Source: Escherichia coli | GTDB taxonomy: Bacteria > Pseudomonadota > Gammaproteobacteria > Enterobacterales > Enterobacteriaceae | Reading direction: 5' to 3' (one strand) | NCBI RefSeq assembly: GCF_003334355.1 | Contig: NZ_QOWP01000001.1 | DNA length: 64,000 nt | In this document: piece by piece, positions 51,875 through 52,321 of the stretch | Layout: each line of letters begins with the position of its first letter | Numbering within the stretch: the stretch's first letter is position 1 | Notes under the pieces: model-generated | What the model was told of the DNA's origin: nothing | The model's database searches: none | The model's input: the letters and a program-made list of their open reading frames with translations, nothing else | Program-made: the position numbers and the translations under genes

Positions 51875-52321
51875 CTTGTCCTCATTGAATAAGCGGGGCT
51901 GACAACTTTTTCATGGTGAAATTATCACCACGAAACCCAGCATCGGAGCCACTCCCGGTCCCCAACGCAATCGTTCTCTTTTGCCTGAACTTACCACCGA
52001 AACAGACTGTTAACCATAAGGTAAAATTGATCATCACATTAGCTTATGGTTAAAAAATGCAAAAATCGCGACAGAATAAAAAACCAAAAAATACACCAGT
52101 TTCTATACAAAGATGATGTGATGAGAAAGTCAATTTGAATAAGACAATATTAAGAGCTAAAAAAATGTCAAAAAACACTAAATCAAAAAATAATGGCATT
52201 AGAAAATATAATGCGAAAACGGAGGTGAAATTAGTTTATTTCAAATGAGGAAAATCTCCCGGCGAAAAAACCGGGAGATGAAAGTGTGATGGGTATCAAA
52301 TAAACAACAGAGGAGAAATTT

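Follow-up and report, generated by a model that had tools for sequence, protein, structure and literature searches.

The AT-rich gap between gcvT and ubiI of Escherichia coli, very probably the cis-regulatory region of the gcvTHP operon: a fixed-length spacer, a small translated ORF and a structured 5' leader

The control region of the E. coli gcv operon is a textbook example of a LysR-type activator, GcvA, that acts at a distance together with an architectural protein, Lrp, and the Enterobacterales sense glycine at the protein level via GcvR and GcvA. The CRP site of this operon was reportedly centred at -313 by Wonderling and Stauffer in 1999. The footprints determined in the Stauffer laboratory are taken by us to be -271/-242, -241/-214 and -69/-34 for GcvA, -92/-229 for Lrp and -3/+17 for PurR, with the same -313 as the centre of the CRP site. 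GcvA protects stretches of 57 bp and 35 bp upstream of gcvTHP, and a CTAAT motif is common to both (PMC5002191). GcvA, GcvR and Lrp form a repression loop that is assisted by Lrp-dependent bending and relieved by glycine (PMC13104608).

The locus was analysed in a 64,000-nucleotide stretch of E. coli DNA (RefSeq assembly GCF_003334355.1, contig NZ_QOWP01000001.1), hereafter called the window. A gap of 447 bp, whose exact coordinates of 51875-52321 follow from the flanking genes, separates gcvT (50780-51874, minus strand) from ubiI (52322-53524, minus strand), in agreement with the length reported in an earlier reading made from the letters alone, here called the sequence-only reading. The RefSeq annotation around the gap comprises gcvH, gcvT, yqfI, ubiI and ubiH, and the 647 bp around it are 100% identical to E. 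coli ATCC 8739. The region is the already known gcvTHP control region, to which minor new details are added below. [quoted passage not shown]

The GC content is 24-30% across approximately 52000-52250 within the gap, and the 200 bp starting at 52013 form the GC minimum of the whole 64-kb window (25.5% versus a mean of 51.5%, z ~ -4.9). Runs of at least four A or T are found at 47.6 per kb in the AT-rich stretch versus 9.1 per kb window-wide, a density about 5 times higher, and the stretch is strand-asymmetric, with 12 A-runs versus 2 T-runs on the plus strand. This AT-richness is far beyond chance fluctuation, and the description of a very AT-rich stretch with A-runs was thus accurate. The same reading had presented the entire gap as a long non-coding leader, and on both counts it has to be corrected. 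The word leader is a misnomer, because the AT-rich part, at about -60 to -270, precedes the promoter; the transcribed 5' UTR appears to measure only ~106 nt (from 51980 to 51875) and has a GC content of ~50%. Nor is the stretch wholly non-coding, as RefSeq places the 27-aa YqfI at 52165-52248 on the plus strand, and the probable ubiI terminator hairpin also sits inside the gap.

A GC content of 25% in a background of 51% might be read as the mark of a horizontally acquired segment or of a mobile-element remnant, possibly silenced by H-NS. The alleles of the AT-rich core fall into discrete, strongly diverged classes in E. coli, which could also suit such an origin: among 5426 complete genomes, the identity of the gap region is at least 99% in 1073, 95-99% in 76, 90-95% in 3450 and 80-90% in 827. 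Moreover, the gap region is more AT-rich in E. coli (GC 0.358) than in its relatives (median 0.44). However, the region is found once per genome and at the same locus in 5426 of the 5426 genomes, and terminal repeats are absent. In a comparative set made of the gcvT loci of 80 Enterobacterales species, ubiI was detected upstream of gcvT in 77 (two of the three remaining loci have too little upstream sequence to tell), and the gap length is similar in most of them, with a median of 423 bp. The internal spacing, described below, is invariant as well. An origin of the core by horizontal transfer is therefore extremely improbable.

A conservation profile was built over 59 non-Escherichia Enterobacteriaceae species. 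It contains conserved blocks at 52285-52290 (a TGTGA half-site), in the stem of the terminator, at 52224-52250, 52197-52219, 52010-52050 and 51962-52000, and at the Shine-Dalgarno sequence. The first of these belongs to a CRP-like site (TGTGAtgggtaTCAAA / TGTGATGGGTATCAAA, 52285-52300), the centre of which is at about -312.5 relative to the transcription start proposed below. This site has one mismatch to TGTGA-N6-TCACA, a pattern matched 5 times in the window versus 1.97 times expected, and its TGTGA half alone is conserved (>=0.9) across the 59 species outside Escherichia.

The motif CTAAT occurs three times in the region, always on the minus strand, versus 0.73 occurrences expected from composition (P = 0.033). 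Two copies are neighbours far upstream and one is close to -35, and each lies within a conserved block predicted to be a GcvA site. The putative GcvA site 3 (52222-52251, minus strand; presumed footprint -271 to -242) contains CTAAT at 52230-52234 (-254 to -250) in the block at 52224-52250, and the putative site 2 (52194-52221, minus strand; presumed footprint -241 to -214) contains it at 52198-52202 (-222 to -218) in the block at 52197-52219. The putative site 1 (52010-52053, minus strand), in which the presumed footprint of -69 to -34 would correspond to 52014-52049, carries its CTAAT at 52038-52042 (-62 to -58). It is a highly conserved block in the 59 species and holds a 15-nt inverted repeat, TTAACCATAAGGTAA/TTAGCTTATGGTTAA, with 93% complementarity.

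The gcvT promoter was assigned to a highly conserved extended -10 sequence, TGgTAAGTT, at 51988-51996 on the minus strand, which is probably the functional element. No good -35 was seen for this promoter when the sequence was read by eye, and for this reason the consensus promoter scan missed it; a missing -35 would fit an activator-dependent promoter. The segment 51981-52050, which comprises the promoter and GcvA site 1, diverges by 0.73% among 11 Escherichia alleles. We infer that gcvT transcription starts at 51980 (minus strand), 7 nt past the -10 and ~106 nt from the ATG. With +1 at this position, the positions given above for CRP, GcvA 3 and 2, GcvA 1 and PurR all coincide, to within 1-3 bp, with motifs or conserved blocks. 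The best match of the promoter scan, TTGACA-16-TATTGT on the minus strand (52171-52144), was discarded, as it is not conserved and two such matches were found versus 1.9 expected.

A putative PurR operator, AGAGAACGATTGCGTT (51964-51979, minus strand, +2 to +17), overlaps the transcription start and is highly conserved across genera. Read on the plus strand, the match ACGCAATCGTTCTCTT at 51965-51980 has two mismatches to ACGCAAACGTTTTCNT, and the window contains 2 such PurR-box matches versus 0.31 expected. The box was found with the asymmetric consensus, whereas a query with the perfect palindrome missed it at up to 3 mismatches. The sequence-only reading had named GcvA, Lrp, PurR and CRP as regulators of this operon, and the PurR motif, the CRP motif and three GcvA motifs or blocks are indeed found at the positions of the published map. 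The regulator scans that it had proposed were successful in part: the PurR and CRP motifs were detected, but the SELEX consensus of Lrp was nondiscriminating, with 75 matches in the window versus 71.6 expected and a single one in the region. Matrix-based methods described in the literature score zero for GcvA (PMC2987836). A weight-matrix test is therefore workable only for PurR and CRP.

The AT-rich spacer (52051-52193) lies between GcvA sites 2 and 1, and the presumed Lrp footprint of -92 to -229 would correspond to 52072-52209. The sequence of the spacer is poorly conserved between genera in the 59 species. It is also the most variable segment within Escherichia, with a mean pairwise divergence of 11.7% among the 11 alleles, compared to 0.7% for the promoter and site 1, 1.1% for the leader and 3.5% for GcvA sites 2 and 3 together. 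The third codon positions of gcvT and ubiI diverge by 7.6-8.6%, which is below the value of the spacer. Its sequence thus seems to drift at about the neutral rate. The distances, in contrast, hardly vary: GcvA site 2 is 165 or 166 bp from site 1 in 58 of 58 species, and in the same 58 species site 3 is 31 bp from site 2, site 1 is 51 bp from the -10, and the -10 is 19 bp from the PurR box. The same overall spacing was found in the loci of Erwinia, Pantoea and Rahnella, with 217 bp from site 2 to the -10, and in those of Serratia, Hafnia and Rouxiella, with 236 bp from site 2 to the PurR box. The effect of half-turn and full-turn changes in the length of the spacer on gcvT expression was reportedly examined, in some form, by Stauffer and Stauffer in 1998.

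DNA curvature was predicted using a wedge model with manually entered parameters; the code was validated with phased A-tracts (35-38 degrees) and unphased ones (7 degrees). The strongest predicted bend of the 64 kb is located at ~52165 (36.7 degrees versus a mean of 9.5) and falls in the AT-rich core; a curvature prediction had been suggested in the sequence-only reading. Many genera share predicted bends at about -185, -110 and -80, and 53-60% of the other genera have one at -190/-180. A Fourier test detected no 10-11 bp phasing of A-tracts over the full 230 bp, the peaks being at 9 and 12 bp, and as there is no global 10.5-bp periodicity the curvature is local and not global. Binding of Lrp would be compatible with the composition of the core, its predicted curvature and its fixed length. 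The core seems to behave as a fixed-length, bendable and composition-constrained spacer, as required by the Lrp-assisted looping model, and the invariant spacing together with the predicted bend would be in keeping with the Lrp-assisted looping by GcvA and GcvR already known for this operon.

An inverted repeat with perfectly complementary arms of 9 bp (AUCUCCCGG-N8-CCGGGAGAU, 52254-52279, minus strand), located between the CRP site and GcvA site 3, may form a hairpin of -17.6 kcal/mol. Its stem is moderately conserved across genera, and it is followed by AUUUUCCUCAUUUG on the minus strand and by GAAAGUGUG on the plus strand. As the tail is U-rich in the direction of ubiI alone, the hairpin is likely to be the terminator of the ubiH-ubiI transcript. 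A simple terminator scan did not call it, and no Term-seq 3' end is listed at 52254-52279 in the supplements of PMC7815308.

The following arrangement is proposed for the minus strand, read from ubiI towards gcvT. The ubiI stop codon would be followed by the CRP site (about -313), the ubiHI terminator, GcvA sites 3 and 2 (-271 to -214), the AT-rich spacer coated by Lrp (-229 to -92), GcvA site 1 (-69 to -34) and an activator-dependent extended -10 promoter, and then by the start at about 51980, the PurR operator at +2 to +17, the 106-nt structured leader, the Shine-Dalgarno sequence and the gcvT start codon. The exact sequence of the AT-rich core would not be read. The core would rather act as an arm of fixed length (165-166 bp), intrinsically bent and bent further by Lrp, that brings the far-upstream GcvA into contact with the promoter-proximal complex. 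[quoted passage not shown] PurR would add a modest repression and CRP-cAMP an activation. The present analysis itself establishes the gap and its base composition, where the motifs and conserved blocks lie, that their spacing is invariant, that curvature is predicted and that a riboswitch is lacking; the assignment of proteins to sites and the loop model are taken from earlier work.

The AT-rich core also contains a gene on the plus strand. yqfI (52165-52248, RefSeq CDS WP_120795391.1) encodes a small protein of 27 aa (MSKNTKSKNNGIRKYNAKTEVKLVYFK), is antisense to gcvT and ubiI and spans -185 to -268 of the gcv promoter. The C-terminal half of the product (…NAKTEVKLVYFK) overlies the predicted GcvA sites 2 and 3, and the N-terminal half is encoded in the distal spacer. 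VanOrsdel et al. described yqfI between gcvT and ubiI as one of 36 small proteins detected by SPA tagging (PMC6001520), and YqfI was detected both by immunoblot of the chromosomal SPA tag in LB and by ribosome profiling with tetracycline (PMC6001520). The YqfI sequence encoded here is identical to the published one, at the same location.

The AT-richness of the gap might consequently be ascribed mainly to yqfI, with its Lys/Asn-rich codons, and to its expression signals, the regulation of gcv being secondary. YqfI is translated and its gene lies in the AT-rich core; moreover, the E. coli alleles sampled all have an intact ORF, and each genome row examined carries its annotation. However, the A-runs reach ~110 bp beyond the ORF, at 52052-52091, and neither a convincing sigma-70 promoter (only 8-of-12 matches) nor a conserved Shine-Dalgarno sequence was found before yqfI. 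Among the Enterobacterales loci compared, the ATG-started ORF of 27 codons is present in Escherichia only, whereas the fixed-length spacer is kept throughout the Enterobacterales. At this position, the frame is interrupted by stops or lacks a start codon in Citrobacter and in most of the other genera; in some genera, CTCAT in place of CTAAT at site 2 gives rise to an unrelated ORF of 16 codons. More than 1000 contigs carry exact-sequence YqfI alleles, the organisms named being Escherichia or close relatives only, and NCBIfam has no model for YqfI.

The substitution pattern also argues against the gene as the source of the AT-richness. Among the 11 Escherichia alleles, the pN/pS ratio of yqfI is 4.9, on ~15 synonymous sites, versus 0.04 for gcvT and 0.07 for ubiI, and the substitutions are almost all amino-acid-changing. 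Codon conservation is confined to GcvA sites 2 and 3. The other two frames of the same DNA showed no coding-like pattern, and no selection on the YqfI amino-acid sequence was seen in these alleles. The yqfI pseudogene of strain SCU-306 was considered as a sign of dispensability and rejected: its frameshift was treated as an assembly error, because three 1-nt homopolymer deletions, here within 165 bp, are typical of long-read error. It is thus very unlikely that yqfI is the main cause of the AT-richness, which we continue to attribute to the looping arm of the gcv control region. yqfI itself looks like a young, Escherichia-specific translated ORF overprinted on GcvA sites 2 and 3.

At the other end of the gap, the 5' leader of gcvT (51875-51980, minus strand) comprises 106 nt from the proposed +1 to the gcvT start and is identical to the MG1655 sequence printed in the literature. 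It folds at -41.1 kcal/mol (z = -2.8 versus shuffled sequence) and contains the gcvT Shine-Dalgarno sequence GAGG at 51880-51883, in a conserved block. A first hairpin (hairpin 1, 51940-51968, +13 to +41, minus strand), with a folding energy of -16.8 kcal/mol, begins just before the PurR box ends and is followed by a sequence, GGGUUUCGU, that is conserved; a second hairpin is predicted at 51909-51935 (minus strand). Hairpin 1 recurs in nearly all genera with differing stem sequences. Its covariation was measured in a PurR-anchored alignment of 56 nt from 60 species, which was chosen because the whole-leader MAFFT/RNAalifold approach aligned poorly beyond hairpin 1. Over these 60 species, the stem is paired in 85.3% of the cells versus 25-58% with slid partners, and the covariation score of 0.348, compared to at most 0.092 with slid partners, was reached in 0 of 500 shuffles. 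One stem position shows GC, CG, AU, GU, UA and UG pairs.

The sequence-only reading had noticed no structure resembling a glycine riboswitch. As far as the riboswitch is concerned, this is confirmed by an Rfam search of 51600-52600 on both strands, in which neither RF00504 nor any other credible match was obtained even at E <= 10 with permissive filters; the implied lack of RNA structure, on the other hand, is contradicted by the covarying hairpin 1. In other bacteria, a glycine riboswitch is often located upstream of gcvT (PMC13104608), and the better-than-shuffled fold of the leader and its covarying hairpin might suggest that the whole 447 bp is a long leader with such a riboswitch or another large RNA sensor, as upstream of gcvT in Bacillus, Vibrio and Neisseria. 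Yet no Rfam family matches either strand, and the positions of the conserved extended -10 and of the PurR box point to a start ~106 nt before the ATG; the AT-rich part lies upstream of this start and evolves at an approximately neutral rate. This interpretation is therefore hardly tenable, and the AT-rich part is better regarded as DNA of the control region upstream of the promoter.

Adams et al. (2021) reported a Term-seq 3' end at MG1655 coordinate 3050723 on the minus strand, annotated as 'upstream ORF -56 gcvT' in the supplements of PMC7815308; gcvT is never mentioned in the main text of that article. MG1655 coordinates equal window coordinates plus 2998793, and this end maps to 51930, i.e. 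+51, 10 nt past the stem of hairpin 1 and between a U and a G. The growth condition was presumably LB at an OD of 2.0. As the end was kept in the 5'-UTR list by the filter of that study (PMC7815308), a mapped start should exist more than 20 bp and at most 200 bp upstream of it, which indirectly supports a gcvT start upstream of +51.

Hairpin 1 has no 3' U-tract: its tail is UGGGUUUCGU, the first four bases after the stem being U/C-G-G-G, and the terminator scan found no intrinsic terminator in the gcvT leader. Because the tail is not the U-tract of a canonical terminator, the end at +51 could be a hairpin-stabilised pause, a weak attenuation or a decay fragment protected from exonucleases. An end 10 nt after a stem has the geometry of a hairpin-stabilised pause. 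Hairpin 1, the conserved GGGUUUCGU and the end at +51 might, although we consider it rather doubtful, mark an uncharacterised RNA-level control of gcvTHP in the Enterobacterales, and this step may consist of pausing, of attenuation or of the formation of a stable fragment of the 5' leader. If anything in the region is new, it is hairpin 1 with the mapped 3' end.

The main value of these results lies in annotation, as the AT-rich stretch appears to be spacer DNA upstream of the promoter, neither a leader nor gene-free. The preservation of its length within 1 bp across the order despite sequence drift is comparative evidence for a geometric and not a sequence-specific role. yqfI suggests that a translated small ORF can arise over transcription-factor sites without protein-level constraint, which calls for caution with small-protein catalogues. 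The leader hairpin and the mapped 3' end offer a starting point for testing whether glycine cleavage is controlled at the RNA level in enteric bacteria. If true, such a step would mean an additional control after initiation at a promoter for which regulation by proteins alone has been assumed.

Compared to known systems, the region corresponds to the gcvTHP control region of E. coli K-12: the locus is the same, the motifs and blocks lie at the positions presumed for K-12, and nothing substantive differs. The invariance of the spacing across genera, the hypervariability of the spacer within the species and the overlap with yqfI are added here to the K-12 gcv work. Promoters with IHF- or Lrp-assisted looping, such as that of ilvPG, likewise have upstream activator sites that are separated from the core promoter by a bent, AT-rich segment, little conserved in sequence but constant in length. 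Unlike a single IHF site, however, the architectural protein of gcv is Lrp, which would coat ~140 bp, and the gcv loop serves both activation and repression (PMC13104608), unlike promoters of the IHF/ilvPG type. The glycine riboswitch RF00504 of other phyla shares the gcvT context and the glycine signal with this locus, but its covariance model has no match here, and compared to the RF00504 aptamer the hairpin of the gcvT leader is a simple stem-loop. Finally, yqfI belongs to the lineage-specific small ORFs of VanOrsdel et al. (2018) as an SPA-detected and ribosome-profiling-positive member. It differs from the other ORFs of that set in that it lies wholly inside the upstream activating region of another operon, with its C-terminal half on two predicted GcvA sites.

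The leader of gcvT contains a conserved, covarying hairpin (51940-51968, minus strand), followed on its 3' side by the conserved sequence GGGUUUCGU, and this hairpin element has no Rfam family. The published Term-seq data place an RNA 3' end at position +51, which corresponds to window coordinate 51930 on the minus strand (MG1655 coordinate 3050723; PMC7815308), and this end was left without discussion in that study. Another abundant 3' end of the same data set lies 65 nucleotides into the gcvT ORF, at window coordinate 51809 on the minus strand (MG1655 coordinate 3050602), and is present in two Term-seq tables, the conditions of which appear to be growth in LB to OD 0.4 and OD 2.0 (PMC7815308). 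It falls at a C|G step directly 3' of a small GUGG-AUUU-CCAC hairpin. As 'No' stands beside the Rho score of this 3' end in the source table (PMC7815308), it was taken as not Rho-dependent. Within ubiI, at approximately window coordinate 52758 on the minus strand (MG1655 coordinate 3051551), supplementary file 2 of that study (Adams et al., PMC7815308) places a region of Rho termination.

The AT-rich core of the gcvT-ubiI gap (52050-52260) falls into discrete allele classes within E. coli. Its identity to the window is at least 99% in 1073 genomes, 90-95% in 3450 and 80-90% in 827, with 76 genomes only between 95 and 99%. The divergence of the core within the species exceeds that of the third codon positions of the flanking genes. 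Relaxed constraint, a mutation bias in the A-runs or recombination between phylogroup alleles could each account for this pattern. One genome among the 5426 carries the gcvT-ubiI locus on a plasmid-labelled record, which is probably a mislabelled replicon.

A promoter-like sequence, composed of a perfect -35 hexamer (TTGACA) and a TATTGT -10 hexamer spaced by 16 bp, is located on the minus strand at 52144-52171, at about -190 and -165 of the gcv promoter. The TTGACA hexamer overlaps the start codon of the small-protein gene yqfI, TTGACAT being the reverse complement of ATGTCAA. Outside Escherichia this arrangement is not conserved, and the match is not in excess over chance for the local composition. 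In E. coli SCU-306 (NZ_CP053231.1; locus L092) yqfI is annotated as a pseudogene by PGAP, and the 165-bp spacer contains three separate 1-nucleotide deletions, each in a T/A homopolymer, which are probably long-read assembly errors rather than biology. In several other genera, a 16-codon ORF, M[RS]K[ST]N..VKLE[YF]FK, lies antisense and upstream of gcvT where the C-terminus of YqfI would be (gcvT loci L011, L028, L035, L038, L048, L069, L072 and L083), because GcvA site 2 reads CTCAT, and not CTAAT, in those genomes. The scattered distribution of these ORFs suggests that they are incidental.

Elsewhere in the window, a PurR-like box with two mismatches (AGCCAAACGTTTTCGT, 7257-7272) and a CRP-like site (TGTGATCAACCCCACA, 7305-7320) were found close together in a 475-bp AT-rich divergent gap. 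This gap is bordered by ORFs of 592 amino acids (5216-6994, minus strand) and 396 amino acids (7470-8660, plus strand), presumably two genes of the purine-catabolism cluster, ygeV and ygeW.
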